A DNA stretch of 60,892 nucleotides from a virus, in the IMG/VR virus record IMGVR_UViG_3300047160_014297, positions 1 through 60,892 of that record. One strand, given 5' to 3'. A program made the translations under genes and the position numbers. The notes beneath the pieces are model-generated. The model saw only the letters and a program-made list of their open reading frames with translations, did not search any database and had not been told where the DNA came from. Positions 2,017 through 55,843 of the stretch are shown one piece after another (within the stretch, counting starts at the first letter, position 1; the number at the start of each line of letters is the position of its first letter).

Positions 2017-3501
2017 ATGGCGTTATTTGGCGGGGTGACAATGCCGGGGAGGCCTGACCCTGAGAACGTCAGGAAGTTGGATCTGTTACCTGTCCCGTTA
2101 ACGATGCGGATGGAACGGGTCGGGTTCGCCATCGACATACCGTACCTCCATGAATTGGAGCTGCAGTTGGACCGCGAGATGAAAACGTTACGCGAGGAAA
2201 TCTGTAGTTACATTCCCGAGGAGAAATTGGACGAGTTTATTGGGAGGTCGAAACTCGATGACGATGATTACCTGCCGATGAACGTCAATTCAAGGGATCA
2301 GTTGTCGGTGCTGTTGTTTGACGTGCTGGGGGTGGGGTCGGGCCGGAAGTTGAAGATGACCAAGTCCGGCACCAGGGTCAGTACAGGCAAGAAGCAACTG
2401 GAATCGTTGAAACGCGGTAGTAGGGTGGTTCAAGCAAGTTTGGACTACGCGGAGAGATTCAAATTAAAGAACACGTACGCGGTTAAAATGCCGCAGGCGG
2501 CGAAACTCCACCCACGAGGTAACGATTGTCCGGTTTGTGAGTTGAGTCACGTAGAGTCTACGTTACGTGTCCATACCACTCTGTTGGACACACGTACAGA
2601 CACAGGCAGGTACGCCAGTAAAAATCCCAACCTCCAGAATTTGCCAGTGCGTACGGCACTTGGCAGGGCTGTACGTGCAGGATTCGTGGCAAGTCCGGGC
2701 AAGCTTCTGGTATCTAGTGATTACAGTCAGGAAGAGATGCGTATTGGTGCTCATTATAGTCAGGACCCGGCCCTGATGGAGATCTTTCGGAAAGGTTTGG
2801 ACCCACACCTCGTGACAGCAATGAAGGTGTTCAAATTGACAGACGCCGACATACCGTCCAAAAAGGATGAATCAGCGTGCAACGAGTTCAAACTCAGTTA
2901 CAGGGACCCCAGTCGGCACTTGAACTTCGGCATATTTTACGGGTTGTCACCGATGGGGCTGGCGGATCAGGTGGCGGTAACCTACGCTACCGCGGGTAGA
3001 GAGTTGCCCGACGAGATTAACGAAGAGTGGGCCGAAAAAGTGATCGAGGATTGGTACGACGCGTATGAAGGTGTCAAAACTTACATCGAGCAACAACATT
3101 ATCGTGCAAGACGCTATGGGATTGTGTGGACCCTTTTCGGAAGAGTACGTCGGGTGCCTGAGACTCGTTCTGTACATTCGAGAGTACACGCAGCCGGACT
3201 ACGACAGTCTGGCAATACTCCGATCCAGGGGACTGGCGCCGACATTATGCGACTCACCATGGGGGCCATGGCCGCCCATCCAGAGATTGCTCAGTTACAG
3301 GATTCAGGGGTACACGTGGAACCAGTGCTCACGATCCACGATGATTTGATCTACGAGGTGGACGAGGATTACGCGTCGATGGTGGGGATGATTCTACAGG
3401 AGGTGGAGAGGGAATTGTTGAGGGACAAGGACACGGGAGAGTACTTGTTTAGGGTTCCGTTAGAGGCGGATGCGAAAATCATGACGAGGTGGCAAAAGTA
3501 A
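2017..3501 (+). CDS. DNA polymerase A, polymerase (palm/fingers/thumb) piece
   Basis: Motif A is SSDYSQEEMRI, motif B is RHLNFGIFYGLS, motif C is IHDDLIYEV, and RVHTT..DTGRYASKNPNLQNLP is also present. It starts 2 nt after the TAG of the exonuclease ORF, in a different frame. Confidence 0.92.
   Translation: MALFGGVTMPGRPDPENVRKLDLLPVPLTMRMERVGFAIDIPYLHELELQLDREMKTLREEICSYIPEEKLDEFIGRSKLDDDDYLPMNVNSRDQLSVLLFDVLGVGSGRKLKMTKSGTRVSTGKKQLESLKRGSRVVQASLDYAERFKLKNTYAVKMPQAAKLHPRGNDCPVCELSHVESTLRVHTTLLDTRTDTGRYASKNPNLQNLPVRTALGRAVRAGFVASPGKLLVSSDYSQEEMRIGAHYSQDPALMEIFRKGLDPHLVTAMKVFKLTDADIPSKKDESACNEFKLSYRDPSRHLNFGIFYGLSPMGLADQVAVTYATAGRELPDEINEEWAEKVIEDWYDAYEGVKTYIEQQHYRARRYGIVWTLFGRVRRVPETRSVHSRVHAAGLRQSGNTPIQGTGADIMRLTMGAMAAHPEIAQLQDSGVHVEPVLTIHDDLIYEVDEDYASMVGMILQEVERELLRDKDTGEYLFRVPLEADAKIMTRWQK
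2550..2562. repeat. Palindrome copy CGTAGAGTCTACG (inside the polymerase gene, read as VEST)
   Basis: Read directly. The extended form is cACGTAGAGTCTACGTtacgtg. Confidence 0.95.
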
Positions 3502-3986
3502 TGGACATCGAGATCTGGAGTGAGAAACATGGACCATGCCGAGTGTGGCTGGCACTACGTTTGAAGGCACTTAAAAGTAAGTGGCCACACTTGAAGTTTC
3601 AGTCCGCACCTTTCACTCAGGCGCCGACGTCGGGTAGTTACCCGGTTTACGTGTCCTATCTGGTGGCGCCGTTCGTGTACGAATCCGGGTCGGGCGAGTA
3701 CCTACGACGTGACATGAGTGACGCCAGGGTGCCAATCATGATGACCAAGGACGAAATGAGCGGCGGCCGGAAGCTGGCGATTTATGAACAACGGAAACTG
3801 GAAGCGGTACACGCACTGTTTGACATGATCGAAACGAACAAGATACCACGTGGTGGAGATAGGTGGTCAGAGGCAACGTACTGGGGAACATTGGCGGATC
3901 TGTTTCCCGACAACACAGAGCAATTTCCCAATAAAAAGATAGAAAGGCGGACAAATGGCGAAATCAGAACCGAAACCGAAAACTGA
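3501..3986 (+). CDS. Hypothetical protein
   Basis: ATG overlaps the polymerase stop (TAATG). A GTG at 3489 is an alternative start. Confidence 0.6.
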   Translation: MDIEIWSEKHGPCRVWLALRLKALKSKWPHLKFQSAPFTQAPTSGSYPVYVSYLVAPFVYESGSGEYLRRDMSDARVPIMMTKDEMSGGRKLAIYEQRKLEAVHALFDMIETNKIPRGGDRWSEATYWGTLADLFPDNTEQFPNKKIERRTNGEIRTETEN

Positions 3987-4386
3987 AAGAAAGAATCTAC
4001 CGGACGTGCTGGATTGTCTGGAAGATTCCAAGGATGACATGCAACGGGCGATCCGCTGTTTGGAACGTGCCCACCAGATCAAACTGATACTGGGTAGTGA
4101 ACGGGACAAACGAACAGGTAAACCCGAGTATGGCGACAAAAACTACGGGTTACTTGCGGAGCTGGAAGATCTGAAAGACGAGTTGAAAATGATTCAGGTC
4201 GCTAACGATTTGGAAGGGTTGAGGCACGGCCGGTTAGGGTCGGCCAGTATCGAGATGGACGGCAGACAGTATTTAGATCCGAAGTTGTTGATGGAAGCCG
4301 GAGTGACCGCCGCACAGATCGTCAAAGGGACCAAGCAAGGGGATAGCTATTATCAGACGACGCTATGGGAGATCAAGTCGGCCTAA
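3955..4386 (+). CDS. Hypothetical protein (charged, coiled-coil-like)
   Basis: 143-aa ORF and the last gene of the plus arm. Its stop overlaps the convergent stop of the tailspike gene. Confidence 0.6.
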   Translation: MAKSEPKPKTERKNLPDVLDCLEDSKDDMQRAIRCLERAHQIKLILGSERDKRTGKPEYGDKNYGLLAELEDLKDELKMIQVANDLEGLRHGRLGSASIEMDGRQYLDPKLLMEAGVTAAQIVKGTKQGDSYYQTTLWEIKSA

Positions 4387-6461
4387 CGAACCCGCCGTGC
4401 GCGGATCTGACCGTACGCTTTCAGGAAACTGATCGTGAAATTGCCCTGAGCCACCAAGTATGCCGTGAACGGTCCAGCCGTGTTGATACGCAAGATCGGA
4501 GTTGGTATAGCTGGATCGGTCAACCCACCAGGAACGACGGCCGGGGTCTCGATGATGGCGACTGAGTCCCGGCCGCCGATCACTGTCGATACTGTCGATA
4601 TCCCCACGATCAGAATGGTGTAGCTGGTTGATGGGTCAAAGTTGAAACTGGCAACACCGGACACGTCCCAATCGCCTGCCGTTAGAGAGATGCTGACCAC
4701 GTTGGCAGGGGTGCCGTTGGAAAGCGAGATGGCACTACCTAACGCGATCTGGGCCGAAACGTATTCGCCGACATCACCGGCTGCGGCGTTGCTGGCGTCA
4801 GTAATACCGGGGATTGAAGCGGTAAACCCGGTGGCTCCGAACGAGTTCATGAACTTGCGGATGTAGGGGCCGCTCGACGTGTTGCTGTAATCAGCCCCAG
4901 CGTTACCGTAACTGTGATTGTGGGCAACAAGGATCGTGCCGGTAGTGCCGGAAGTGCCAGTCAGGGCCAGACCGACCCAGTTGTTGTAGGTGATGTTGCC
5001 GGTGACAGTGCCGTGACTGGTAGTACCGGCCATCTCGATACCACTGGGGCCGGAACCCACAAGGGCTCCGACAACGGTGTTATTAGCAACAGTGAACCGT
5101 GTGGTGTTGGTGAGCAGAATCCCGTCACCGAGAGCCCCGGAGCCACGAGGCGTATCGACGAAGTTGTTCGTAATACGAATATCCGTGGACTGGCCGTCGG
5201 TAATACCCCGTGTTCCTGGACTATAGACCTGATTCGAGTCGATGGTGATTCCCGTAGAAAATCCACAAGCAATGCCTTGATTATTACCGTGATCCGATAT
5301 ATTGCCAATCACACTGACATTCGAAGACCCCGGCAGTATCTCGATAGATGCCACGCCCGGCGTGACCGAGTCGGCCGAATCATTGAAGCTGCGATTGTTG
5401 GATATTACAGATCTGGAAGCAAAGGATTCGATGCCGTCGATCGCGTTATGTTCGGTGTAATTGCCGTGAACCAGGATGTCCGTGGTGCCGGTGCCACAGA
5501 AGATACCGGACCAGCTCGCATGGGTGACCTTACAGTTGAGAATACTGATGTTGGCAGAGTCGTGGCCGGGGGAGATGCCGAACGTAGTGCTGCCTGCTCC
5601 AGTACCGGAATACGGCCCTTTCACGTACAGGTCACGGACAGTAACGCCGGTTGATGAGGGTGAAATAAAGACAACAGCGGAGGCCGAGCCGCCCCAATCT
5701 GGAGGGAATGGTAGATCAGATGGGGCGTGAATGGTGGAGTCCCAACCCGACCCGACCAGGGAAACACCCGATGGAACACGTAGGAAATTGGAGACTTTGT
5801 AGGTACCCGGTGGCATGTAGACGCGTGCACCTGTTACTGAGGCGTCGTTCAGGGCCGATTGGATCGCAAAGGTGTCGTCGGATGATCCGTCACCGTGGGC
5901 AAGGTACGGTACTGATCGGACATCCAGTTGGATCTGGGCTTCGTCGAATCCAGAAACAGCGGGTAGGGTGAAGGGTGATGTAATGCCAGTACCTGAGAAT
6001 TGAATATTGTACGCACCGTTGGGGGCGTAGAAGCCCCAGTTACCGAGGTTGTCCGCTGTAAAGGGGTTGGAGAGGGGAGTACCTTGATTGTCGGAATAGA
6101 TCTGGGCCAACGGTATACTGGAGGCCACGCCACCGGATGACGAGCCATTCGCGCCAGCCTGTGCCCAAACCAGTGAAGTGCCGGAGTAACTTCCTATAAC
6201 GAACGCACCGTTGAAGGAGGAGTCGGGGACGGCGGTAACGTTGACGGTCTGGCCGGTTGCGAACCCCAAACCGGACGGTACGGTTGCCGTTACGATACTG
6301 GATGATCGGGTAATTGCGGATATCGCTGCGGATATCGTGGTGGACGAGAACACAGTGACGGTGGCACCCGGAAAGGAACCTTGGACCAGAGTGGTAGATT
6401 GAAGTCCGGAGGTGTGGACTTTGGTGTTACCTTGCTGGGCGAAACCATAAATTCTCTGCAT
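4383..6461 (-). CDS. Tailspike or depolymerase with a pectate-lyase-3-type right-handed beta-helix
   Basis: The motif YLAHGDGSSDDTFAIQSALNDA...VYMPPGTYKV is a Pectate_lyase_3-type N-terminal signature. It is followed by many NxxxG-type beta-helix rungs. The gene sits at the terminal position of the late operon. Confidence 0.8.
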   Translation of the reverse strand: MQRIYGFAQQGNTKVHTSGLQSTTLVQGSFPGATVTVFSSTTISAAISAITRSSSIVTATVPSGLGFATGQTVNVTAVPDSSFNGAFVIGSYSGTSLVWAQAGANGSSSGGVASSIPLAQIYSDNQGTPLSNPFTADNLGNWGFYAPNGAYNIQFSGTGITSPFTLPAVSGFDEAQIQLDVRSVPYLAHGDGSSDDTFAIQSALNDASVTGARVYMPPGTYKVSNFLRVPSGVSLVGSGWDSTIHAPSDLPFPPDWGGSASAVVFISPSSTGVTVRDLYVKGPYSGTGAGSTTFGISPGHDSANISILNCKVTHASWSGIFCGTGTTDILVHGNYTEHNAIDGIESFASRSVISNNRSFNDSADSVTPGVASIEILPGSSNVSVIGNISDHGNNQGIACGFSTGITIDSNQVYSPGTRGITDGQSTDIRITNNFVDTPRGSGALGDGILLTNTTRFTVANNTVVGALVGSGPSGIEMAGTTSHGTVTGNITYNNWVGLALTGTSGTTGTILVAHNHSYGNAGADYSNTSSGPYIRKFMNSFGATGFTASIPGITDASNAAAGDVGEYVSAQIALGSAISLSNGTPANVVSISLTAGDWDVSGVASFNFDPSTSYTILIVGISTVSTVIGGRDSVAIIETPAVVPGGLTDPAIPTPILRINTAGPFTAYLVAQGNFTISFLKAYGQIRARRVR

Positions 6462-8056
6462 TACTTTGCCATCACAGTCCAGTTCGTACCGTCACAGTAA
6501 GCCAGGACATGATTGGTGCCCGAGCCGGTGATGACAGCGCCCCACGTATTGGTCATCGAATCGTTGACGGCACGCATGGACCCTTCGGTGCCGCCACCGC
6601 AACCGGGCAGGACTGAGAATGCTACCGCGGTCGACTGGACCATACCGTTAATGGAAAGGGTAGGGTTGGGACCTTGGTTGGCTCCGGTAAACATCGTGAT
6701 GCCGTCATTGGAACCATTGGCGGTAGGGGACAACTGCATGAATGCTTTGTCACCGGCAGCGACCGTGTTGCGGAGGACGCCGACTGTGGATTCCCAGTCG
6801 AGCCGGATTTTATTGGTGCCACTGGCAACGAGGTTCAACGTTGGTGTATTGACAAGAGTCGAGAACAGACCGTTGGTACCGTTGACCGTCGAGGTCGTCA
6901 AGTTGGCCGCGCCAGTTATCGATCCGAGATAGACGTCCGTAACTGAGACGTTGCCGATCACACAGGTATTTGAGGTGTGGGCCAGTGCCGATGTCCCTAA
7001 GATACAAGTGTTGGAAAGTTGGGTGGTTGAGTCCGCACCGGTACCAAACCCGACCCATGTATTGAATTGACCGGTCAGGTTGGCGTTAGCGGGTGTTGCC
7101 GTGATGCCAGAGTTCATGCCAACCAATGTGTTGAACGATGCCGTGGTGTTGAAGTAACCGGCACCAAACCCCAGGAATGTGTTGTCGTTGCCGGTGGTGT
7201 TGTTGTTACCGGCAGTTTGGCCGTCCGCTGTGTTTTGAGAGCCGGTGGAGTTCGTGACGAGACATTGGTCGCCGGTACAGGTGTTGTTATTGCCGGTCGT
7301 GGTCGAGACCAGAGCGGAGTGGCCGACACCGGTGTTGTTGGAACCGGACGTTAAGGTTCCGAGGGCAGCAGCACCGACCGCGGAGTTGTTGGAGGTGGAG
7401 TTGGCGTTCACGAGAGTGTGCCAGCCGATCGCGATGTTGTCGGTACCGTTGCCACCAGCTGAACCGAGGGTTTGAAGGGCCAGGGAGCCTAGTGCCGTGT
7501 TGCCGCCATTGTTGCCGATACCGTTACATGAGAAGTACCCGATACAGGTGTTCTCGGCCGAATTCACATTGTGCTGGAGGGCGTTGAAACCCATGGCGAC
7601 GTTGGCTAGGGACTGGTTCTGGGTCTGGGTGGACATGGCGCCGATACCAACAGCAGTGTCGGTGTTGTCGGATCGGATCAAGGCGGGGGCGACCCGGTCG
7701 GCCAGCGTGAAGGCGGATGGGATACCGGCTTGATCGAGCTGGACGTTGTAATGGGAGCCACCGGTGCCGTAGAAGAACCACTGGCCGGACGTGTTGGCGA
7801 AGAATGGGTTAGAGAGAGCAGTGCCTTGGTTGTCGGAGAAAACGGTCGCGACCGTGCCAGTACCGTAGTTGAAGACAGTGATGCGGCACGATGGGTAGGA
7901 AAGCTGGACACGGTTGGACGAACGGATGCCGGAGGTTATGGCTTGCTGGTTGCCGTTCTCACAGAACCCCGAGATTAGAGTGTAGATGGGAGTCTGGGAG
8001 TGAACCGTGGAAGTAAGAAGTAAAAGTGAGAATAAGGTTAAGAGTAATCGTTTCAT
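6461..8056 (-). CDS. Tail-fibre-like protein with a Sec-signal-like N-terminus and NT/NS-rich repeats
   Basis: N-terminus is MKRLLLTLFSLLLLTSTVHSQ. It shares the SDNQGT.LSNPF.A..G.W.FY module with the tailspike. The central region has repeats of the NTA.G..AL type. ATGA overlap with the downstream gene. Confidence 0.7.
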   Translation of the reverse strand: MKRLLLTLFSLLLLTSTVHSQTPIYTLISGFCENGNQQAITSGIRSSNRVQLSYPSCRITVFNYGTGTVATVFSDNQGTALSNPFFANTSGQWFFYGTGGSHYNVQLDQAGIPSAFTLADRVAPALIRSDNTDTAVGIGAMSTQTQNQSLANVAMGFNALQHNVNSAENTCIGYFSCNGIGNNGGNTALGSLALQTLGSAGGNGTDNIAIGWHTLVNANSTSNNSAVGAAALGTLTSGSNNTGVGHSALVSTTTGNNNTCTGDQCLVTNSTGSQNTADGQTAGNNNTTGNDNTFLGFGAGYFNTTASFNTLVGMNSGITATPANANLTGQFNTWVGFGTGADSTTQLSNTCILGTSALAHTSNTCVIGNVSVTDVYLGSITGAANLTTSTVNGTNGLFSTLVNTPTLNLVASGTNKIRLDWESTVGVLRNTVAAGDKAFMQLSPTANGSNDGITMFTGANQGPNPTLSINGMVQSTAVAFSVLPGCGGGTEGSMRAVNDSMTNTWGAVITGSGTNHVLAYCDGTNWTVMAK

Positions 8057-9945
8057 TCGGCACCTGTAAGTTGGCGACGGATTTCGTTCTGGATAGCGAC
8101 GGCACGTTGCATCATGGTTTGGCGGTTGGGATGCATCGGGTTTTTGCGGAGTTGGGTCGTAATATCGTTTAGAAGACGGCGGAGATCCGCAACAGTGTAG
8201 TTCTGGGTACGGAGATCTTGAGCGGTAGTGATGTCACGGGTCTGGTTCAAGCCGAACAACTGGCCTTGACCTTTGTTGGGCTGGCCTGGGAAGAATGTGC
8301 CGGACTTGCCGGGCTGGCCGGTCGATTCGGGTGTCGAGAACTGACCGAACTGGAGCTGACCCTTGGGTTGAGGTTGGAGTGGTTCGGTCGGTCGGACGGT
8401 ACGGGCACGGGTCAGGTTGCCGGTCGTTAGGTCGGTACGCCCCGCTTTGGGACGCGACAGTACGCCTTCACCGGACGGGATCAGTTCCTGGGCCTTACCT
8501 TTGACGGTTGTAACGGGTGGTTCGATTTTGGTAGAGACGGGGTCGGGGGTTTTGTCCCACCGGCGTAGTGCTGTAACCAGATCTTGATCGACGGTACGGT
8601 TCTCTCCCTTGGCGAACCCTTCAAGGGTCTTGCCGGGCCGCATCGCTTGACCGACACGGTAGGCGACTCTTGCGGGTAGTGGTTCGCGAGTCGCTACCGA
8701 CTTGTTGGCATTGGCGCGTAGCGCGTCTTCGAAATGGATGAGGGCTCCGTTACGCGAGTTGAGGGTGCGGGCCGCGTCACCGCCACCGTAACCGTACTTG
8801 TCGAGCGATTCATAGAACAGTTCGCGGGAAGCGCGCCCGCGGGCGATATCGACGGCACGTTGGCCTGCTTCCATCGTTAATTGGCCGGACAGGTCCTTAC
8901 CGTAGAAGGGAGATTGGGTTGCGGCGGTCTCGGACCGGATTTGGTTCAACCAGCCAATCTTGGGGCGCAACGGTGTACGTTCAATGATGTCGTTGACCAA
9001 CCGGTCACGGGCTGCAGGTTTAATGTCTTTGGGGATGGCGGCGAGCTGGGCACCGCGGAGACGTCGGCCCACCGTTAATGGAGTAACGATGTTACGTTGT
9101 GGGGCAACAATTTCGTCGATTCCCGCCGAATTGACGCCGAACTGTCGCTTGGTTGCGCGAAGGAATTGAGGGACATTCTTGGCCGGGCCGAGGACTTTTT
9201 CGGCTTCTTTGAGTTCGGACAAGGCGATCGGTAAATGTTGCTGGAAGGTTTTGTCGGACGGACCCAGACCGCGGGTTGCTAAGGTTTCCGATGAACGGAA
9301 GAGACGGGAATTGAGACGATCGAACAGTGCCTTGGTGGAAGGGTCCAGACCTTCAAAAGCGGCTGTAAGGCCACGACCGACAACTTGGCCACCCAGGTCG
9401 GCGACACCCATTTCGAGGCCACCCCGACCGGCACTCAGGAGAGCTTCGGCGGTATTGGCCGGGCCGGGTTGGTTGCTGTAGCCGCGGGAGCGGGCAATGT
9501 CACGGACAGCGGTACCGGCTGCTCCGCCAAGGATGGTGGCGGGTATACCTCCGCCCAGTGGGTCGGCCAGTTCACCGGCAGCAGCGCCGAGACCGGCACC
9601 GACAGCGGGTAAGTTTTCAACGAGTCCGGTGCGGGCTTCTCGACCGAAGGATCGGAGTTTTTCGCCCATGGTGAGTGGTGGGCGAAGTCCCATGTCAGTC
9701 GGGATGCCGAAGGCACCGGTTGCTGGGCCGGACGGTGTTGTGGGTTTGCCGGTGGCCCGAACCATCGACGGTGGTGCCTTCAATCGTGGTGAATTGACGA
9801 ATTTCAACTTGTCCGCGGGACTGAGACCGGTCCAGTCGGTGTCGCCGGTCATGTCGAGAGCTTTGATGCGCTTTTCGGAGGGCAGAGATTGGAATCGAGA
9901 GTCGTCGACGACGTCCTTGACCGTGAGTTGGGCCGACTGGGGCAT
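8053..9945 (-). CDS. Large virion protein, candidate internal or ejection protein (Gly-rich hydrophobic segment)
   Basis: 630-aa ORF with the segment LPAVGAGLGAAAGELADPLGGGIPATILGGAAGTAV. It lies between the tail and fibre genes, as the internal core proteins do in T7-like gene orders. Confidence 0.55.
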   Translation of the reverse strand: MPQSAQLTVKDVVDDSRFQSLPSEKRIKALDMTGDTDWTGLSPADKLKFVNSPRLKAPPSMVRATGKPTTPSGPATGAFGIPTDMGLRPPLTMGEKLRSFGREARTGLVENLPAVGAGLGAAAGELADPLGGGIPATILGGAAGTAVRDIARSRGYSNQPGPANTAEALLSAGRGGLEMGVADLGGQVVGRGLTAAFEGLDPSTKALFDRLNSRLFRSSETLATRGLGPSDKTFQQHLPIALSELKEAEKVLGPAKNVPQFLRATKRQFGVNSAGIDEIVAPQRNIVTPLTVGRRLRGAQLAAIPKDIKPAARDRLVNDIIERTPLRPKIGWLNQIRSETAATQSPFYGKDLSGQLTMEAGQRAVDIARGRASRELFYESLDKYGYGGGDAARTLNSRNGALIHFEDALRANANKSVATREPLPARVAYRVGQAMRPGKTLEGFAKGENRTVDQDLVTALRRWDKTPDPVSTKIEPPVTTVKGKAQELIPSGEGVLSRPKAGRTDLTTGNLTRARTVRPTEPLQPQPKGQLQFGQFSTPESTGQPGKSGTFFPGQPNKGQGQLFGLNQTRDITTAQDLRTQNYTVADLRRLLNDITTQLRKNPMHPNRQTMMQRAVAIQNEIRRQLTGAE

Positions 9946-9947
9946 GG

Positions 9948-11666
9948 TCAGCGACCTACCTTTTCGAACAGGCCGTCGAGAGCGGACTTCTTACCGGTGT
10001 CGGGTGTCGGAGTTGCCGACGTACCTTCGGATGGTAAGTAGGGTGAATCGCCCGAGACGCCAGCGACACCAGCATTCATGATCGAGGACCGCCGGATACC
10101 GATGGTACGTTTCAACCGGTTGATGGCGTCACTGAAAGTTTGTTCGTTCCAGTCGCCCGACAAGTTGGTGGCGGCAAGTTTTAATGACTCGTCGGTGGAG
10201 GAGTTACCACCCTTGTAGACGGTACCAAGTTCGGAGGTCAAGTCGGCGATCTGGGCGTCCAGTTGGGTGGCGGCAGAACCAGCCTCACCAGGAAGTTGTT
10301 TCATGGAAGCGAGTGCCGCACGGTTCAGGATTTTGTAGCCAGAGATACCGGCCTGTTTCTTCCATTCCGCGTACAAGTCTTCGATCTGCGGTAAGGACTC
10401 TTCGACCAAGGATACCGCTTGACGGAGACGCAACTGTTGCTGTCCGTTCAAGGTGGTCATGTAGCGTTGAATGGCTTGCCAATCACGGGTTGCGGTGGTC
10501 AGGTCAAAACCACCACGTCTCAATGCCGCCTCGACCTGGATACGGTTACGGTAGAAGCCACGAAGGTCCGGAGGGAGTGACCCGTCCATGATACCTTGGG
10601 CGACTTGGTCGATATCGTCTTTGTTGGAACCACCGGATACAGCAGCACGGACTCGGGCCACAGCGTCGGCGATACGTTTCTTTTGTTCTTCGACGGCGGG
10701 AGAGAAGGGGATATCGCGACCAGGGACTGGTTTGGTGGCTTTTTCGGAAGACGGGGTCGGGGCTTCTAATAATTCTCCAGTGTCAGTGTCTTTCAGTAGT
10801 TGGCCGGTGTTCTGATTGACGTAAAAGTACTTGTTACCTTTCTTGACAACGCCGGGCTTGACTGTTTCGGGTTTGTAACCAGTAATTCGTTCTTCCGCAT
10901 ACACTTGCGACGGGTCTTCACCGGCTTGAATACGCATCCGGGCACGGTTGGACCGGATGATATCGTCGGCGCGGGTCTGGGCGTCCATGGCTTGCTGGGC
11001 TTTTACTTTGTTGCGGAGAGCGCGGTCGTCGGAGGCATCCAGAACGGCTTGGTGGGCTAGACTCGATTCAAATGTGTCCTGGGCTTGGGCCAGCGCAGTC
11101 TGGTCATCGATGGAACGTTGTCTCAACTGTTCGTCCGACAAGAAAAAAGAGCGGGGGCGACCGGCCTGGGATGGACCGGCGTTGGGTTGGGTTGTGGGTT
11201 GACCGCCCCCGCTGGTAGACATCTGACGGTTCTCGGCATCAATGATGTCTTTGTTGGCTTCGTATGCGGACTGGAAAGCGGAGTTGGGGCCGCCGGGATG
11301 TGGGTACTGAGGCGTCAGCGGCTGTTCCTGGTTGCCGGATTCCGGGTTGTACTGAGGATTGAAACTGGGTGCCGGACCGGGGGTACCCTCCGCTCCGGAA
11401 GTACCGCCCGGTTTTGACGCGTCCTGCGAACCGGCACCACTCGGATTACGGTGAAACCCCAGGAGATGAGAGAAAATGTTCGTAACCAACCCGTGGGATT
11501 GTTTCGGGACGTTACCTTCACCCAACATTTGCTGGAGTGCCCACTCTTTGGCTTGGCCGGTCGCGGTAGGGTCGTTCAGGACCGATTTGTAGGCGGTCAC
11601 CTTGTTGGCTTGCTCCTGGTTCTTTTTGTTACGCCGGTCTTCGATCAGGTCGGTTAAAAGGCCCAC
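9948..11666 (-). CDS. Large virion protein, candidate internal or ejection protein (coiled-coil, Pro/Gln-rich linker)
   Basis: 572-aa ORF in the late operon. No catalytic motif was recognised. Confidence 0.5.
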   Translation of the reverse strand: MGLLTDLIEDRRNKKNQEQANKVTAYKSVLNDPTATGQAKEWALQQMLGEGNVPKQSHGLVTNIFSHLLGFHRNPSGAGSQDASKPGGTSGAEGTPGPAPSFNPQYNPESGNQEQPLTPQYPHPGGPNSAFQSAYEANKDIIDAENRQMSTSGGGQPTTQPNAGPSQAGRPRSFFLSDEQLRQRSIDDQTALAQAQDTFESSLAHQAVLDASDDRALRNKVKAQQAMDAQTRADDIIRSNRARMRIQAGEDPSQVYAEERITGYKPETVKPGVVKKGNKYFYVNQNTGQLLKDTDTGELLEAPTPSSEKATKPVPGRDIPFSPAVEEQKKRIADAVARVRAAVSGGSNKDDIDQVAQGIMDGSLPPDLRGFYRNRIQVEAALRRGGFDLTTATRDWQAIQRYMTTLNGQQQLRLRQAVSLVEESLPQIEDLYAEWKKQAGISGYKILNRAALASMKQLPGEAGSAATQLDAQIADLTSELGTVYKGGNSSTDESLKLAATNLSGDWNEQTFSDAINRLKRTIGIRRSSIMNAGVAGVSGDSPYLPSEGTSATPTPDTGKKSALDGLFEKVGR

Positions 11667-11678
11667 GGTAATCCTCCG

Positions 11679-12221: not shown

Positions 12222-12235
12222 CAGTCAAATCTCCA

Positions 12236-12248
12236 CGTAGAGTCTACG
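12236..12248. repeat. Palindrome copy CGTAGAGTCTACG (intergenic, 14 nt upstream of the ATG of 11679..12221)
   Basis: Read directly. The 15-bp palindrome ACGTAGAGTCTACGT spans 12235-12249. Confidence 0.95.
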
Positions 12249-12270
12249 TCAGTCTACGTCAGTCTACGTC
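12241..12270. repeat. Tandem repeat, 3 x 10 bp (AGTCTACGTC), extending the right half-site of the palindrome
   Basis: agtctacgtc agtctacgtc agtctacgtc fills the intergenic spacer between 12269..13021 and 11679..12221. Confidence 0.95.
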
Positions 12271-13021: not shown

Positions 13022-13031
13022 TGGACTGGTC

Positions 13032-13409: not shown

Positions 13410-13424
13410 TCAAATATCCTCCGA

Positions 13425-43913: not shown

Positions 43914-43928
43914 TCCGCCATCTACTGC

Positions 43929-44887: not shown

Positions 44888-44900
44888 CGTAGACACTACG
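44888..44900. repeat. One-mismatch palindrome copy CGTAGACACTACG (intergenic control region)
   Basis: Read directly. It shares the flank ...CTACGTTACCGG with the copy at 55480. Confidence 0.7.
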
Positions 44901-47737: not shown

Positions 47738-47792
47738 CGCCTACACTGAATAGGTTCCAATGGAATCGAACGCAGTGTAGGCGTTTTTGTTT
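47738..47792 (+). terminator. Rho-independent terminator after 47466..47702
   Basis: CGCCTACACTG - 24 nt (with the inner palindrome ttccaatggaa) - CAGTGTAGGCG is followed by TTTTTGTTTG. A small GGCCGA/TCGGCC hairpin sits at 47702-47715. Confidence 0.55.
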
Positions 47793-47826
47793 GCGGAAAG
47801 GTCAGGCGGAGAGGAGCAACCAAGGG

Positions 47827-47979
47827 ATGAGAGAAACCAAGTCGGAACACTTGAAGGAGCACAGTACTTGCGCCGTAAGTGGGTGCCGAAACGAGGCTAC
47901 AATAGTAATGGTTACAGAGCAAGTACAGACCGAAATGTGCCTCGATTGTGTCCTGAACGTAGAGTCTACGGGCGCATAA
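47827..47979 (+). CDS. Small Cys-rich protein
   Basis: GGAGAGGAG lies upstream of ATG 47827. The ORF contains a palindrome copy, read as VEST. Confidence 0.45.
   Translation: MRETKSEHLKEHSTCAVSGCRNEATIVMVTEQVQTEMCLDCVLNVESTGA
47958..47970. repeat. Palindrome copy CGTAGAGTCTACG (inside 47827..47979, read as VEST)
   Basis: Read directly. Confidence 0.95.
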
Positions 47980-48116
47980 AAAAGTAATAAGTCATTGGTA
48001 GGGGTACCGGGCAACTTTTTCTGACCCGGAGGTCGGATTTGGCCCAAAAACGAGGTGATTCGTAAAGATTTTATGGGTCAAATTTCCGGGTGCAAACTAT
48101 ATAAATTTCCGTCCAA

Positions 48117-48939: not shown

Positions 48940-49236
48940 ATGGCGGACATTATTCGAGTGATCCGGATTGTAGAGATTGTCGGTGAACGGTCGAGAGTCG
49001 AGAAGCAAGTTGAAAGGAGTCTGCACGGAACGAGGCGGATCAGTGATCAGTTGGCGATACATGCGGAGACGCTAGGGGTGGTGCCGGAGTCGGCGATGTC
49101 GGACAGTAACGGAGAGTTGCTGGAAAAGATTGCCGAAGTACTGACTGACTATAAAGAGGGGTCTTACGTGACAGTGGTCGACGACATCAAAAGCCTGATG
49201 CGGAGTTGGAAGGGATGGGAGGGACATGATGCCTAA
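48940..49236 (+). CDS. Hypothetical protein
   Basis: 98-aa ORF with GGAGGA upstream. Confidence 0.6.
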   Translation: MADIIRVIRIVEIVGERSRVEKQVERSLHGTRRISDQLAIHAETLGVVPESAMSDSNGELLEKIAEVLTDYKEGSYVTVVDDIKSLMRSWKGWEGHDA

Positions 49237-50887
49237 ACTGGGGTTTGCAAATATTGGCGGAAACGATGAACCAGTACCAGAAGTCGGTGGGGCTGTCGGT
49301 ACCGACGAACAACAGACAATCTGGAAGGTCGGTTGCAATCCGGATGGGCCGCACATGATTGTCAATGCCGTGGCAGGGTCAGGTAAGACGTTTACCGGGG
49401 TGGAACTCTGTAAACGGTTACCGGCGACAAGTAAGGTCGGGTTCGTCGCGTTTAATAAGCATATCGCCACTGAATTGAAGTCGAAATTGCAGGGTCACTC
49501 GAACGTCCAGGCCATGACTTACCATTCGCTTGGGTTGCAAGCCATCAAAAGTAAGCTGGGGTTTGTCGACGTGGATCAGTACCGGCTGGATGGAATTTTA
49601 GACAAGTGGAGCTGGCCCAAAGATTGGGAAGATTCCAAAATACGGTACGTGGGCGCCCGGACGCGCCGGATGGTGTCGGTTGCCAAACAGTACGGTGCAT
49701 GGTCGCGTGAGGAGTTGGAACGGCTGGTCGACCATCACGATATTGATTTGAACGGGATTGAGGAGGATGTGCTGACGCTGGTACCGGCCGTATTGAAGAA
49801 GTGTCTGGAGTTTGGGAAAAGAAAGACGGTCGATTTTGACGACATGGTCTGGTTGCCGAAGGAATTGAAATTGAAGATGGCCGGGTTTGACGTGCTGTTG
49901 ATCGATGAGGCACAGGACACCAATTTGAGTCAACAGTGGTTGGCGTTGAACAGTGCCAAGCGGTTGGTCGTGATCGGTGACCCGCACCAAGCGATTTACG
50001 GGTTCCGCGGTTCTGATAGTAGGTCGATGGCACGGTTGAAAGAAGAGTTGGGCAAGTCCGATCGTGGCGTCATTGAACTGGGGTTGAGCTTCACTCGGCG
50101 GTGTCCCAAGTTACACGTCAAGATGGCACAGAAGATTGTGCCTCAGATTCAAGCGTTACCGGAAGCGCCGGAAGGTGTGGTGAGGGTAGAGTCTACCGAA
50201 CAGGCGCTAGAAGGGATGAGGGCGGGCGACTTGGTGATTTGTCGGGTCAATGCGCCGTTACTGGAGACGGCGTACTCGTTACTGAAGATGGGTAAAAGGG
50301 CAGTGGTCAGAGGCGGGGATATCGGCGAGGGGTTGAAACGGTTGATTGAACAGGCGTGTAAGAGGGTCGCAATGACAGATAGTAAGCAACAGTACTTGGC
50401 GGAGATGTTGACCGCGGCCGAAATGATTACCAGTGAACAGGTACAGAAGCTGGAGAAAAAGGGTAAGAGCGAAAACAAGATTGCGTCCGCACAAGACAGG
50501 TTGAGTTGTCTTGAAGTGCTGGCGCTCGATCACACGTCGGTGGATCAGTTGCTGATTACCATTAACAAGTTGTTCAGCGACTTTGATGACGATGGTAAGC
50601 CCGTACAAGCGATCGTACTGGGGACTGTTCATAGAACAAAGGGTTTGGAAGGGTACCGGGTGTACGTACTGGAACCGGCGAAAATTCCCCATCCCATGGC
50701 GAAGAAGGAATGGGAACGGGAGCAGGAATTGAATTTGGCTTACGTTGCCTGTACTAGATCGAAATGGGGCGAGGTTACCGAAACAGGGATTGGGTTCACT
50801 GGTAACAAGAAAACCTACAGCGGCGAGTTGATATTTGTCGGTGGCGAGTGTCCACGATGTTACGGGAAACTACACCATCACCGATAA
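49226..50887 (+). CDS. Superfamily 1 DNA helicase (UvrD/PcrA/Rep-like)
   Basis: Helicase motifs are AVAGSGKTF (I), VLLIDEAQDT (II), VIGDPHQAIYGFRG (III) and VHRTKGLEG (VI). Confidence 0.88.
   Translation: MMPKLGFANIGGNDEPVPEVGGAVGTDEQQTIWKVGCNPDGPHMIVNAVAGSGKTFTGVELCKRLPATSKVGFVAFNKHIATELKSKLQGHSNVQAMTYHSLGLQAIKSKLGFVDVDQYRLDGILDKWSWPKDWEDSKIRYVGARTRRMVSVAKQYGAWSREELERLVDHHDIDLNGIEEDVLTLVPAVLKKCLEFGKRKTVDFDDMVWLPKELKLKMAGFDVLLIDEAQDTNLSQQWLALNSAKRLVVIGDPHQAIYGFRGSDSRSMARLKEELGKSDRGVIELGLSFTRRCPKLHVKMAQKIVPQIQALPEAPEGVVRVESTEQALEGMRAGDLVICRVNAPLLETAYSLLKMGKRAVVRGGDIGEGLKRLIEQACKRVAMTDSKQQYLAEMLTAAEMITSEQVQKLEKKGKSENKIASAQDRLSCLEVLALDHTSVDQLLITINKLFSDFDDDGKPVQAIVLGTVHRTKGLEGYRVYVLEPAKIPHPMAKKEWEREQELNLAYVACTRSKWGEVTETGIGFTGNKKTYSGELIFVGGECPRCYGKLHHHR
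50185..50197. repeat. Palindrome copy GGTAGAGTCTACC (inside the SF1 helicase gene, read as VEST)
   Basis: Read directly. The outer base pair differs, but the sequence is still a perfect palindrome. Confidence 0.9.
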
Positions 50888-51515: not shown

Positions 51516-51767
51516 ATGGTCAAACATGCCAAGAAGAGGGTGGGGTTTCACAATAAACGGGGTGGTCGGAGGAGTAGTAAATGGCCGGACGTTAACTTGA
51601 CGGTAGTGGCGGAGGAAGTCGGGATATCGCCCAGTCATTTGAGCAATATTATGTCGGGGGTTTGTAAGCCAAGCTGGGAGGTGGGGTTGAAACTGGCTGA
51701 GGTGTGGTCACGGGTGGTGAAGCGACAAGTGAAAGCGGAAGATCTGGAACAGGAATTCAAACAATAA
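51516..51767 (+). CDS. HTH (Cro/C1-type) DNA-binding protein
   Basis: LTVVAEEVGISPSHLSNIMSG is an HTH. The ATG lies 8 nt downstream of a TACAAT box. The gene is preceded by iteron arrays. Confidence 0.65.
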   Translation: MVKHAKKRVGFHNKRGGRRSSKWPDVNLTVVAEEVGISPSHLSNIMSGVCKPSWEVGLKLAEVWSRVVKRQVKAEDLEQEFKQ

Positions 51768-51779: not shown

Positions 51780-52757
51780 ATGGGCAAAGCAACAGTAGCA
51801 ACAGAACACAGTCACTCGGGATGGGTGGAGTTGAGACCCAACCAGATTGTAGAGGACCCGGTAACGAACGTCCGGATGTGGTCGGCGTCGGATGACGATT
51901 CGGATTCTATTAAAGAGTTGGCCCAATCGATCGTAGCGGTCGGGCAGATCAACCCGATCGAAGTGCGCTGGAAGATCAACAGTGGTGCGACCGACCCCAG
52001 TGACGGGCAATACGCGATCGTGACGGGGAGGAGACGGTTGGAAGCGATCCGGTCACTCGGCGACGGGTTTATGGTGAAGGCGACGGTGTTGGAGGTTGAC
52101 GACAAGAAGGCCCGTCAGCACGCGTTACAAGAGAACGCCAAACGTAAAGATCCGTCGGCGATGGATAACGCGCAAAATATCGCGGAGGTACGGGAGCGTG
52201 AAGGGTGGAAGGGCGGCAAGAATACCAGTAAGGTGGCCGAGTACTTTGGAATGAGTGTGGCCTGGGTAACGACCCATGAAAAGTTGCTGGGGTTGGACAA
52301 GAGTCAACAGAGTCGGATTCAGAGTAACGGTTGGTCCGCGCAAGCGGCATTTGATCTGATCGGTGTGCAGTACAAAAAACGTGGGGAGGTTCAACAGCGG
52401 GCCGAGGAGATCGCGGACAAGGAAGCGAAAGACAAGGGCAAACCCAGAAGAAGGGTAAAGAGCAGGCACGTCCGGCAGGCGGCACAAGAGACCCAGGCGT
52501 CAAGTAAGCCGAAACAACGGAAGACCCGTGAGGTGGTGGAGTTCTTCGAACGGTTCGACGTGGACGAGTACGGACGGCCGGACGGTGTGGTTCGGCAGTT
52601 TATCGTGTACCTCAATAAGTGGCTGGCCGGTCAAGGTACCGACCGGACATTGACGGAGAAGTTCGACGACATCGCCACGTTTGTACCGAATGGGGTTATC
52701 CCGAAGGTTGCCAGAAAACCCGTTAAAAAGGTTGTGAAGCCCAAACCCAAGAAGTAG
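51780..52757 (+). CDS. ParB-like nuclease/partition-domain protein
   Basis: INPIEVR and IVTGRRRLEAIRSLG form the ParB GxRR box. The C-terminus is basic. Confidence 0.75.
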   Translation: MGKATVATEHSHSGWVELRPNQIVEDPVTNVRMWSASDDDSDSIKELAQSIVAVGQINPIEVRWKINSGATDPSDGQYAIVTGRRRLEAIRSLGDGFMVKATVLEVDDKKARQHALQENAKRKDPSAMDNAQNIAEVREREGWKGGKNTSKVAEYFGMSVAWVTTHEKLLGLDKSQQSRIQSNGWSAQAAFDLIGVQYKKRGEVQQRAEEIADKEAKDKGKPRRRVKSRHVRQAAQETQASSKPKQRKTREVVEFFERFDVDEYGRPDGVVRQFIVYLNKWLAGQGTDRTLTEKFDDIATFVPNGVIPKVARKPVKKVVKPKPKK

Positions 52758-52781: not shown

Positions 52782-54137
52782 TTGGCAACAGGACGGTGGT
52801 ACAGCACGGAGGGCAGGGCATTGGCGGACAACGGCACAGCGCAGGGACAAGCACGCAAAAAACCCAAAAGTAACAAGGTGAGTTTGAGTCAATCGCCGCT
52901 GGCGAGGCCGGAGACGGCCATCCATCAATTGGCGTCAGAGATACAGAAGTATCTGTTTTTGCCGGACCCGACCGCACTGTACGCCACGATGGGGACGGTG
53001 GCGGCCAACATGATTTACGGCAATCCCGTGTGGACGATACTGGTCGGGCCGCCGAGTTGCGGGAAAACGGAAATTCTCGAGATGTTCGTGAATTTACCGA
53101 ACACGAAGGTGGTGTCGGTCATTGAGTCGATTGCGGCGTTACTGTCAGGGAGTAATAAGAGGGATATCGCCAAAGGGGCAACGGGCGGATTGTTGAGGGA
53201 AATAGGTTACGAGGGAATGTTGATCATGACCGATATGGCCGGGATGTTACGACTACCATCGGACCCGCTCGGTAAGGTGCTGGCGGCATTTCGGGACATT
53301 TATGGTGGACGGTGGGTCCGGCCAATCGGTGGTGAAGGAGGCAGGAATCTGGTGTGGGGACCGTTGCACGCACCTCCGCAAGGTGATGAACGGTACGGCA
53401 AGCTGACGTTCTTGGCCGCGGCCACACCGACGATTGACCGGCACCATACCATGAACGCGGAACTGGGCGAGCGGTGGGTCTACTACCGGTATCCGGACGG
53501 CGAAGGGGATGGCGAGACACGGTCAGCGTTAAGAAATAAGAACCCGCAAGAAGCAAGGGAGGAAATGAGGGTACTGATTGCGAACTTCTTCCGGGAGTTG
53601 CCCATGGATTTCGTCCGGATGGCCGAGAAACGAGACTATACGTTGTACGAAGAGATGCGGATTGCGGCCATGGCCAAATTATGTGTCAGGGTCAGGAGTT
53701 TGGTACCCCGTGAAGGGTGGAAACGGGAAGTCGCCGACATGGCGGACAGTGAAAGGCCACAACGATTGGCCACGGTGTTGGGGCAACTGTACCTTGGGTT
53801 GGAAGCGATCGGACTGCCGGAGGGTGAACGGTGGTACGTGGTGGGGAAGATGGCCGTGGATTCGTGTCCGCGGTTGAGGTCGGAGGTTATGAAAGTGTTG
53901 TGGGGTCAGAAGGGACTGGGGCCGGTTGATCTGGTCGATATTGCGTTGGCGTTACGATTGTATCGGTCACAGCCGGTGGTGACTCGCGCGATCGAGGATT
54001 TGGAAATACACGGTATCGTAACGGTTAAGAAGGAGCAGGGCGAGAAAAGTACCGTGGAAATGACCGATGACGCCAGGGATCTGTACGAGAAGGCAGGGTG
54101 GAACGGGATTTACGAAAAGGAAGAGGCGGACTCATGA
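52782..54137 (+). CDS. P-loop NTPase, candidate replicative helicase or loader, with a C-terminal winged-helix-like region
   Basis: Walker A is VGPPSCGKTE and the Walker B-like segment is GMLIMTDMAG. The precise family was not recognised with confidence. Confidence 0.55.
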   Translation: MATGRWYSTEGRALADNGTAQGQARKKPKSNKVSLSQSPLARPETAIHQLASEIQKYLFLPDPTALYATMGTVAANMIYGNPVWTILVGPPSCGKTEILEMFVNLPNTKVVSVIESIAALLSGSNKRDIAKGATGGLLREIGYEGMLIMTDMAGMLRLPSDPLGKVLAAFRDIYGGRWVRPIGGEGGRNLVWGPLHAPPQGDERYGKLTFLAAATPTIDRHHTMNAELGERWVYYRYPDGEGDGETRSALRNKNPQEAREEMRVLIANFFRELPMDFVRMAEKRDYTLYEEMRIAAMAKLCVRVRSLVPREGWKREVADMADSERPQRLATVLGQLYLGLEAIGLPEGERWYVVGKMAVDSCPRLRSEVMKVLWGQKGLGPVDLVDIALALRLYRSQPVVTRAIEDLEIHGIVTVKKEQGEKSTVEMTDDARDLYEKAGWNGIYEKEEADS

Positions 54138-55843
54138 CAGATATGTTGGAGGATGTAGAACCGAAAGATTTGGGTATCGGGTTTCCGACGTTCCGGCAGA
54201 TACAACGTGAAGCGGGTTACCAAGCGATCTACGGTGAGGAACGATTCCAGGGGTTGTGTGCGCCGACCGGGTGCGGCAAGAGCGGGATTGCGGCGTTGGT
54301 ACAGCGAATGACGGGGTGGCGAACTGCGGTATTAACGGCGACGAAAGGACTGCAGGAACAGTACCTCGCCACGCCGCGTGACTTCGATATCGCGGATATA
54401 AGAGGTAAGTCGAACTACGATTGTTACGAGATGAAACGGACCCGGCCCGAGTTGAGGTTGGCCTGTGACGACGGTCAACGGATGGGTTGCTCGTTAAAAG
54501 GGAGGGATGGAGGTTGCCACTATGAAGAAGAACGGAATTCTGCGCGTCGGTCCGATTTTGTGGTGACCAACTACGCGTACTGGTTTGCGGTGAACCGGTT
54601 CAGGCGGTTCGGGCCGGGGTTAGAACTGGTGGACAAAGAGACGGGGGAAGTGCGGAATCCATTTGAGTGCTTGGTGTTGGATGAAGCGCATGCTGCACCG
54701 GACCAACTCTCTAATTTTCTGAATTGTTCCATCAGCGAGAAAGAAATCAACGAGTTGATGGAGATGGCCCGGCCCGAGATCGGTGAGGATGTGGGTGGCT
54801 GGGAGATCGGTGAGGATGTGGGTGGCTGGGCGAAGTGGGCTCAAGGTAGGGTTGCGAAAGTCGAGTCGCTACTTGCGGAGCGACAAGCGGACTTGTTGGT
54901 GACGAGGGCCAAAGCCGTTAGTAGGGACATCGAGATCGTAAGGAAGTTGGAGAAGCTGGTCGAGAAGTTAGGAATGATGTCGACGATGGTCGACAAAGAG
55001 TGGGTCTGTGAGTACAAGGAAGGGACACGATGGGGAAGAGTATGGGAGTTCGATGCGGTATGGCCGGGACGGTACGCCGAGCAGTTCTTGTTTCGAGGCA
55101 TTCCGCGTGTGGTGCTGTTATCAGCTACGCTGCGCCCCAAAACTCTCGGATTGCTTGGCATTCGCAAGGAAGTGTCGAAGTTTACGGAGTGGCTGAAGAT
55201 ATTTCCAGGGCACCGGTGTCCGGTGTATTTTCTGCCACCGACGAAGGAAGGCGGAAAACAGATAAGGATAGATAGGAATACGACCGACGAGGATATGAGG
55301 TTGTGGGTCGAACACATCGATCGGATTATTGATATGAGGACAGACAGGAAAGGGTTGATATGTACGGTGAGTTATCAGAGACAGCAATACTTTCTGGCGA
55401 ATTCGAGGCATCGACGATCGATGCTTGGAAATACTTCAGAGAAGGACTCGGAGTCCAGTTTGGAGGTCTACCGCAGGCACGTAGAGTCTACGTTACCGAC
55501 CATACTGGTGAGCCCAAGTTTCTCTACAGGATGGGACTTTCCGGGAAAATCGTGCGAGTTCATCGTGATTTGCAAGATCGCGTTTCCGGACGGCAGGTCA
55601 AAGGTGATGAAAGCCAGGAAGGAGCGGGATGAAGATTACCCGAATTACATGGCCGCGCTGGACTTGGTTCAAGCGTGCGGAAGGGGTATGCGGTTTGAAG
55701 AGGATCAGTGCGAAGTGTTCGTGACGGATGGGCACTGGACATGGTTTGGACGGAAATGCAGCGGGTTTATGCCGATGGGTTTCTTCAATTCGGTAAGGAA
55801 TTGGAACGGGGCAGGAATGCCGAAACCGCTCGAAAAACTGTGA
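54134..55843 (+). CDS. XPD/DinG/Rad3-like DEAH-box helicase with a 4-Cys (Fe-S) insertion
   Basis: CAPTGCGKS (I) and VLDEAH (II) are present. The four cysteines lie in NYDCYEM...LACDDGQRMGC...GGCHYEEE between motifs I and II. Start is at ATG 54134 with ATGA coupling. Confidence 0.8.
   Translation: MTDMLEDVEPKDLGIGFPTFRQIQREAGYQAIYGEERFQGLCAPTGCGKSGIAALVQRMTGWRTAVLTATKGLQEQYLATPRDFDIADIRGKSNYDCYEMKRTRPELRLACDDGQRMGCSLKGRDGGCHYEEERNSARRSDFVVTNYAYWFAVNRFRRFGPGLELVDKETGEVRNPFECLVLDEAHAAPDQLSNFLNCSISEKEINELMEMARPEIGEDVGGWEIGEDVGGWAKWAQGRVAKVESLLAERQADLLVTRAKAVSRDIEIVRKLEKLVEKLGMMSTMVDKEWVCEYKEGTRWGRVWEFDAVWPGRYAEQFLFRGIPRVVLLSATLRPKTLGLLGIRKEVSKFTEWLKIFPGHRCPVYFLPPTKEGGKQIRIDRNTTDEDMRLWVEHIDRIIDMRTDRKGLICTVSYQRQQYFLANSRHRRSMLGNTSEKDSESSLEVYRRHVESTLPTILVSPSFSTGWDFPGKSCEFIVICKIAFPDGRSKVMKARKERDEDYPNYMAALDLVQACGRGMRFEEDQCEVFVTDGHWTWFGRKCSGFMPMGFFNSVRNWNGAGMPKPLEKL
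55480..55492. repeat. Palindrome copy CGTAGAGTCTACG (inside the XPD/DinG-like gene, read as VEST)
   Basis: Read directly. Confidence 0.95.

Follow-up and report, generated by a model that had tools for sequence, protein, structure and literature searches.

We analyzed a 60,892-nt phage genome (IMG/VR record IMGVR_UViG_3300047160_014297, positions 1 to 60,892; hereafter, the window) that carries a short odd palindrome, GTAGA[G/C]TCTAC, in 10 exact copies, compared to 0.41 expected; the 12-mer GTAGAGTCTACG is found nine times versus 0.01 expected. The copies are enriched, are subject to purifying selection at the DNA level, occupy conserved positions in relatives, change their sequence in concert, and are evenly spaced. 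The explanation that we favor, and to which we give an even chance, is that they are dispersed operator or loading sites read on double-stranded DNA by a sequence-specific homodimeric reader, which would be a protein and is predicted to be encoded by the phage itself. An initial annotation of the window had noticed that all seven intragenic copies are read in one frame and orientation (Val-Glu-Ser-Thr, VEST), and had proposed either a strand-specific function relative to transcription or the spread of a small in-frame cassette.

The window (G+C 55%) is a complete phage genome assembly. Positions 1-64 are repeated exactly at 60829-60892, and this 64-bp end overlap indicates a circular or terminally redundant assembly and a complete genome of 60,828 bp. 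Gene calls were taken from stop-to-stop open reading frames (ORFs), tool gene calls and homology; our own Markov gene caller was weak. The replication genes lie on the plus strand from 45059 to the end and run on through 1..4386, and the minus strand carries the genes for structure, packaging and lysis at 4383..44637. A megablast search of the window against INPHARED gave zero matches, and the best tblastn match of the polymerase gene (polA) is only ~33% identical, which indicates that a cultured relative is absent.

The palindrome is perfect apart from its center base. With the core written as GTAGA-S-TCTAC, the extended form in this phage is (A)CGTAGASTCTACG(T); the 13-mer palindrome CGTAGASTCTACG accounts for nine of the 10 copies, and the tenth, at 50186, is GGTAGAGTCTACC, which has the flanks G..C rather than C..G and is palindromic as well. 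Past about 15-19 bp, the flanks of the copies are unrelated. Seven of the 10 copies are intragenic, six of these in well-supported genes, and all read GTA GAG TCT AC on the coding strand; frame arithmetic combined with stop-to-stop ORFs confirms the reading of the initial annotation for six copies and makes it probable for the seventh (47959). On the plus strand, the palindrome is found in polA (2017..3501) at 2551..2561, where it reads H-VEST-L within the extended palindrome ACGTAGAGTCTACGT, in the SF1 helicase gene (49226..50887) at 50186..50196, where it reads R-VEST-E, and in the XPD-like helicase gene (54098..55843) at 55481..55491, where it again reads H-VEST-L. On the minus strand, the copy at 34164..34174 reads S-VEST-L in 33761..34582, whose status as a gene is confirmed by a 50%-identical homologue in a related phage (phage C, contig L369; see below). 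The copy at 36916..36926 (minus strand) stands at the 3' end of 36912..37514, the minus-strand gene upstream of the large terminase, so that VEST is followed by the stop codon, 15 nt before the terminase start (36897); the copy at 40607..40617 (minus strand) reads VEST-E in a TPR protein gene (39640..41076, minus strand). The remaining intragenic copy (47959..47969, plus strand) lies near the 3' end of a 50-aa ORF, 47827..47979, and reads VEST-GA before the stop. This ORF has a plausible ribosome-binding site (RBS) and a Cx4C...Cx2C zinc-ribbon pattern, no homologue of it was found, and it is overlapped by 47787..47987 (plus strand), which would read RRVY, and by minus-strand ORFs; VEST coding by this copy is probable rather than certain. 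The ORF ends with CLDCVLNVESTGA and a stop, and polA (2520-2565) has CPVCELSHVESTL, both with CxxC followed by x-L-x-(x)-VEST; outside the motif, the DNA of the two regions is not alike.

The three intergenic copies, all in the minus-strand block and listed on the plus strand, differ from the intragenic ones in that their center base, read along transcription, is C. They lie at 12237..12247, between the minus-strand genes 11679..12221 and 12269..13021; at 24186..24196, between 24212..25255 and 23935..24147 (both minus strand); and at 29428..29438, 40 nt upstream of 28345..29388 (minus strand). The first of these is abutted by three tandem 10-bp units GTCTACGTCA (12242..12271, plus strand) that repeat the right half-site TCTACG at one-helical-turn spacing, with extra TCTACG at 12253 and 12263. 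In addition, a one-mismatch copy, GTAGACACTAC, with typical flanks (ACGTAGACACTACGTTAC) stands at 44889..44899 in the divergent intergenic region between the gene blocks. A variant of the GTAG-nnn-CTAC form, GTAGGGACTAC, is present at 29702-29712, and about a dozen such variants, with conserved outer arms and altered centers, are seen in relatives; these may be decayed or low-affinity copies.

Relatives were found by an alignment-based scan of IMG/VR; a single-protein locus scan of IMG/VR yielded nothing, and exact 15-mer scans gave mostly single chance matches, yet recovered more of phage B (IMGVR 3300036835_000105; L031, L120 and L179). The polymerase has hundreds of metagenomic homologues on contigs of ~60-68 kb; the relatives found also include the JGI contigs Ga0634842/53/57 and contigs 4773 and 16249 of Logan SRR16630593. 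Relatives with polymerases 42-75% identical to that of the window carry the same 11-mer at the matching polA residue (HVEST) and elsewhere, and the DNA of the polA site is identical at the matching residue of seven other polymerases. When eight polA genes (proteins 42-75% identical to the window's) were compared, 106 columns had the same degenerate amino acid in all; the codon was common to all eight genes in only three of the 106 columns, namely, those of the site, GTA GAG TCT. With the site codons as the only ones that are invariant across the eight genes, the comparison provides direct evidence for selection on the DNA sequence and not on the peptide. The initial annotation had named conservation of VEST in homologues without the palindrome as an outcome that would refute it, and this is borne out in part: the polymerase context is HVE[SA]T, and such homologues read HVEAT or HVEPT. 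The alignment partners of VEST are variable residues of a zinc-finger-like H..CxxC..H segment in polA, KSAS or KTAD in XPD, and VVTT in SF1. In the polymerase, this segment is an insertion, and the palindrome overlaps its last His.

If selection acts on the DNA, a gene that contains a copy is bound to encode the residues dictated by the palindrome. Of the three frames, one would be forbidden by its TAG, the second would be read as R-R-[V/L]-Y through the rare codon AGA, and the third as V-[E/D]-S-T. Since it is the DNA on which selection acts, VEST would be a by-product of the site and not a functional peptide.

Each clade of relatives has its own over-represented odd palindrome, and the copies within one genome share the sequence and not just the pairing pattern. 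The clade palindromes are GTAGAnTCTAC, TTAGTnACTAA, TCCAAnTTGGA, TCTGAnTCAGA, TCCGAnTCGGA, CTAGGnCCTAG and TTAGAnTCTAA; those of clades other than the window's are also written TCCAANTTGGA, ATTCTGASTCAGAAT, TCTGASTCAGA and TCCGASTCGGA, and that of the TTAGT clade (TTAGTSACTAA) has the extended form GTTAGTSACTAAC and numbers up to 13 copies in 21 kb. The flanks vary symmetrically within the GTAGA clade, with CG..CG in the window and in L021, and TG..CA in phages B and D (the latter L366, NCBI JBFOMW010000964.1). The closest long relative, phage C, with a major capsid protein 91% and a terminase 74% identical to those of the window, is represented in Logan (sample SRR16630593) by L203+L205 (18,686 bp) and L369 (42,713 bp), in total 61.4 kb; the two contigs of the sample are complementary halves collinear with the window, and thus probably one phage that was split by the assembler.

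The motif of phage C is GTAG[T/C]GACTAC, and six of its eight copies are at positions matching window copies. Four of the matches are genic, in polA, in XPD (GTAGCGACTAC, read HVATT), in SF1 (CGTAGTGACTACG, read VVTT), and at the 3' end of the pre-terminase gene, the homologue of 36912..37514 (GTAGTGACTAC). The other two are intergenic, one between the homologues of W_24212 and W_23935 (GTAGTGACTAC, matching the copy at 24186) and one 38 nt upstream of the W_28345 homologue, i.e., that of 28345..29388 (GTAGCGACTAC, matching the copy at 29428). No site is present in phage C at the residue matching 34164..34174. At all matched sites, the same two inner positions are changed (position 5 from A to Y, position 7 from T to A), which turns VEST into V[V/A]TT in three unrelated enzymes. 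Such a concerted change at fixed positions is predicted by a trans-acting sequence-specific reader with drifting specificity, and would not be expected from independent decay, from a mobile cassette or from a hairpin with a purely structural role.

In the window, the copies are distributed more regularly than expected at random (p 0.006-0.02), and the same holds for most relatives (Fisher combined p = 2.8e-6). In the mechanism that we propose, the palindrome would be a cis-acting DNA site bound by a phage-encoded homodimer, with the copies kept in place and evenly distributed around the 60.8-kb circle of the genome, as would be the sites of a genome-wide system. The occurrence of both orientations, and of both intergenic and intragenic placement, fits recognition of duplex DNA. 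Two more features count in favor of dispersed protein-binding sites, namely, the half-site repeats in 10-bp phase that abut the copy at 12237, and the presence in the genome of a ParB/Noc-type helix-turn-helix (HTH) protein next to a small HTH protein. The former protein, a candidate reader, is encoded at 51780..52757 (plus strand) and combines a CTPase-type domain at its N terminus (GRRRLEA box) with an HTH domain (Pfam ParB_N, 3.9e-8; PHROG ParB-like, 1.9e-23; PDB ParB/Noc/Spo0J over residues 40-233). The second candidate is an 83-aa Xre-type HTH protein (51516..51767, plus strand; PHROG transcriptional regulator, 3.2e-9) encoded immediately upstream of the ParB gene, and its homologues adjoin ParB in relatives. 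No ParA, CbiA or AAA_31 family is among the Pfam matches of the 59 window proteins. For the conserved 451-aa protein adjoining ParB, and for the other replication-block proteins without an assigned function, no match was obtained in sequence searches of NCBIfam, PHROG and PDB.

Several observations weigh against these sites being read by such a dimer. Comparison of the ParB and HTH recognition helices pinned no reader among the candidates: the ParB recognition helix is alike in the window (SVAWVTTHEKLL) and in phage C (SPAWVTTHEKLL) despite their different motifs, the helix of L101 (RATVSQCDKLL) differs though the core motif of the window is shared, and the HTH recognition helices are not sorted by motif. 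ParB is also present in relatives where no repeated palindrome was found. Furthermore, a symmetric dimer leaves unexplained both the bias of the center base in the replication block (19 of 19, see below) and the recurrent asymmetric variant GTAGCGACTAC in phage C. It should be noted that the specificity residues of ParB may lie elsewhere in the protein.

The uniform frame of the intragenic copies is the observation from which the initial annotation had started, with a chance probability of roughly (1/4)^6. This figure comes from the wrong null model. Under a block-specific codon-usage null, in which the VEST share is 0.29 for the plus and 0.13 for the minus block, seven VEST out of seven in the window has p = 1.5e-5, although this null takes into account neither common ancestry nor amino-acid tolerance. 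A minimum of three intragenic copies of the window have their ancestry in common with sites in a relative, and with the clade-wide VEST share (~0.7), the probability of seven out of seven is near 0.08. When the tally was extended to relatives, other frames and orientations were found, which is the outcome that the initial annotation had itself named as refuting, and strict polarity does not hold. In phage B, three structural genes that are backed by homology (to W_22452, W_28345 and the portal gene) read VDST, and XPD and two further long ORFs read CRVY; L032 reads GRVY, L042 SRLY, and phage D RRLY. Among the relatives as a whole, xRVY is found at least four times and xRLY once or twice, about six copies together. 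What persists is the G of the replication block, where the distinct intragenic copies of the whole clade comprise 15 VEST, 4 xRVY and zero with coding-strand C, i.e., coding-strand G in 19 of 19 (p = 2.3e-4 versus the codon-usage null). The distinct sites of the structural block (4 VEST, 3 VDST, 1-2 xRLY) agree with the null (p = 0.39). Counted along transcription, the orientation is the same in 7 of 10 copies in the window, in 7 of 8 in phage C and in all 19 of the replication block, and is mixed in the structural block of phages B and D. Phages B and D also led us to reject the possibility that the center base is oriented according to genome strand or genome domain. Coding-strand G is strongly preferred in the window lineage and in the replication module, but does not belong to the element as such.

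This tendency is the basis of the first alternative, in which the palindrome is a strand-specific element acting relative to transcription, either as an mRNA hairpin with a central-G triloop that is read by an RNA-binding protein or RNase, or as a polar protein-DNA block similar to the stoperators of mycobacteriophages, which RNA polymerase would pass in one orientation but not in the other. We consider it unlikely, even though G lies along transcription in all seven intragenic copies of the window, as well as in the copies of phage C and of the replication block just counted. The three structural-block copies of the window use GAG, which is rare there: the plus strand has a positive GC skew over the whole window (e.g., 4383-44637 and 45059-60892), including the minus-strand genes, which consequently use GAG at 8.3 per 1000 versus 25.6 for GAA and 40.2 for GAC. 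Stoperators are themselves predominantly in one orientation relative to transcription (PMC6550527), and many of the copies in phage D and in the TTAGT clade abut start codons, where a hairpin could couple the translation of neighboring genes. However, the predicted hairpin is weak (-4.3 kcal/mol), is identical in energy for an AGU or an ACU loop, and is often not predicted in context, where its formation probability ranges from 0 to 1.0. Features of structured RNA or terminators are missing as well, in that there is no U tract, the copies share their sequence, and the stems show no covariation. A polar element is also contradicted by the three oppositely oriented intergenic copies of the window, by the three VDST copies of phage B, and by the structural-block tally that matches the null. 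In the TTAGT clade, the center base is a synonymous position (Val GTN), and intragenic copies are found in either orientation; most intragenic copies of the TCTGA and TCCGA clades have C on the coding strand and read S-D-S-E. Finally, one central base pair is a slim basis for polarity.

In the TTAGT clade (L047, L050 and L052) and at 3785, 7237 and 14314 of L366, most copies are exactly at gene junctions, with the TAG or TAA of the motif serving as the stop codon of the upstream gene and the next RBS or ATG following within 1-15 nt; examples are TTAGTGACTAAC-ATG and GTAGAGTCTAC-ATG.

The second alternative, which we also hold to be improbable, although not negligible, is that the palindromes act in replication or recombination as single-strand or cruciform DNA elements. 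They would be priming or nicking hairpins, or cruciforms cut by the ERCC4-type nuclease of the phage to start recombination-dependent replication, and the even spacing would provide coverage of the genome. Both the even spacing and the perfection of the palindromes agree with this, as does the gene content, since the phage encodes ERCC4, a Sak4-like annealase and the SF1 and XPD helicases, and a recognizable primase was not found in the window. Furthermore, the GC skew, positive on one strand over both blocks, suggests strand-asymmetric, possibly unidirectional, replication. On the other hand, the copies of each genome keep one exact sequence and show no compensatory changes in the stem, stems of 5-6 bp are short for extrusion, and the orientation of the center base does not track one genome strand.

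Third, the palindrome could be a target of restriction-modification or methylation, e.g., of the GANTC/CcrM type, given that the core contains GAGTC, or a binding site of a host factor. Four of the clade motifs are centered on GA-S-TC, and neither phage-encoded candidate covaries cleanly with the motif, but we judge the probability of this explanation to be low. The window contains GANTC 233 times, compared to 228 expected, so that the sequence as a whole is neither over- nor under-represented, the centers of other clades are GTSAC, AANTT or GGNCC, and restriction targets are normally avoided rather than conserved at matching positions; as a general explanation, GANTC/CcrM is excluded by these counts and by the centers of the other clades.

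The remaining alternative, a mobile in-frame cassette encoding VEST(L), or VEST as a functional peptide, is almost certainly wrong: three window copies do share GTAGAGTCTACGTTAC (VESTL, with the rare codon TTA), but this flank is accounted for by a weaker outer palindrome, GTAAC..GTTAC, the polA, XPD and SF1 alignments contain no indel at VEST, three copies are intergenic, and relatives read VDST, RVY or VVTT at such sites. A mobile cassette or MITE in general is largely refuted by the same alignments and by the unrelated flanks of the copies. Nor is there support for hairpin promoters of the N4 type, given that no RNA polymerase family is among the Pfam and PHROG matches and that the largest ORFs are ~1200 aa.

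Returning to dispersed sites for a DNA-binding protein, three known systems offer a comparison. The first is KorB-OB, along with ParB-parS and Noc-NBS systems in general. The IncP plasmid RK2 has about a dozen copies of the KorB operator, OB, dispersed over a replicon of ~60 kb, some of them far from promoters. OB (TTTAGCGGCTAAA) is a 13-bp odd palindrome with a G/C center (PMC11790492), and the window likewise has an odd palindrome of 13-15 bp with a G/C center, in 10 exact copies and one near copy on its replicon; its ParB-family protein (CTPase-type N domain, HTH) adjoins a small HTH protein, like KorA/KorB. Among the differences, the ParB recognition helix of the window does not covary cleanly with the motif, a ParA or IncC partner is missing (Pfam, 59 proteins), and most window copies are intragenic and conserved at matching codons, in a phage rather than a plasmid.

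Stoperators, the repressor sites of L5 gp71 type, are found mostly in short intergenic gaps. Their resemblance to the window sites consists in many 13-bp copies over the whole phage genome and a tendency of orientation relative to transcription. In Cluster A mycobacteriophages, the stoperator motif differs among related phages in step with genome distance (PMC6550527), and the clade-specific motifs and the concerted shift described here parallel this divergence. However, the stoperator site lacks symmetry, and the repressor that binds it is a monomer (PMC9283540), whereas the window site is palindromic and not uniform in orientation. Moreover, seven of the 10 window copies are intragenic; placement in short intergenic regions is a feature of the TTAGT clade and, in part, of phage D. 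The Pfam scan of the window proteins revealed neither an integrase nor an identifiable immunity repressor. Phage D (L366, 1592-2815) has the GTAGA motif together with a tyrosine integrase gene, which indicates that at least some members of the family are temperate.

In the plasmid-prophage N15, the SopB centromere sites are scattered, some of them in or near genes. These palindromic sites of a ParB-family protein, IR1-IR4, are present as several separate copies in the phage genome (PMC7205306). N15 differs from the window in having four even palindromes and a SopA partner, compared to ten odd palindromes and no ParA here, and there is no sign of a plasmid-prophage lifestyle in the window phage. 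By analogy with these systems, the site set would work like dispersed operator or loading sites, yet it lacks defining features of both KorB-OB and the stoperators.

A bolder version of the explanation that we favor is a previously undescribed genome-wide system, shared by a large family of uncultured phages of ~60 kb, in which an evenly spaced lattice of clade-specific odd palindromes, fixed mostly inside essential genes, would co-evolve with its reader, possibly a ParB/KorB-like CTP clamp, the center base would, within the replication module, set a polarity relative to transcription or replication, and the whole would organize or insulate the phage chromosome. We offer this combination as speculation that is probably not correct in full.

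Other features of the window and its relatives were noted in passing. The family A polymerase is encoded in two ORFs, 506..2014 (a UDG-like domain and the 3'-5' exonuclease) and 2017..3501 (the polymerase), and in relatives, up to five small genes lie between them. The divergent intergenic region (44640-45060) contains three ACTATAG(T) repeats, which are sigma-70-like -10 elements (TATAGT) on the minus strand, and about five copies of CGGACAAG, in addition to the degenerate palindrome at 44889. In a sister clade (L071 and L046; polA 56% identical), the dispersed palindrome is absent, and clustered arrays of an asymmetric repeat, GAGACGAA-NY-CGAGA, occur in a few non-coding stretches at ~40-50 bp spacing (for example, 5935-6606, 4006-4096 and 12501-12650 of L071). 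In the head module, the portal and W_28345 genes flank an HNH endonuclease gene (30623-31177; PHROG 5046, 1.2e-15); a tblastn search of the collinear regions in phages B, C and D revealed no counterpart, and for this reason, it is likely to be a mobile homing endonuclease. A second PHROG 5046 member is present elsewhere in the window.

Taken at the level of the DNA, these sites are a clean natural case in which a non-coding signal takes precedence over protein sequence: as the motif changed, VEST gave way to V[V/A]TT in three unrelated enzymes together. For annotation, this serves as a warning that conserved phage tetrapeptides can be by-products of a DNA motif. The palindromes mark a whole family of uncultured phages as carrying a dispersed, co-evolving system of sites and reader. 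If the reader is the ParB-type protein of the phage, genome-wide clamp loading of the KorB kind would be extended to phages, and if the lattice exists as outlined, it would be a system that visibly dictates the amino-acid sequence of the polymerase, the helicases and the packaging genes.

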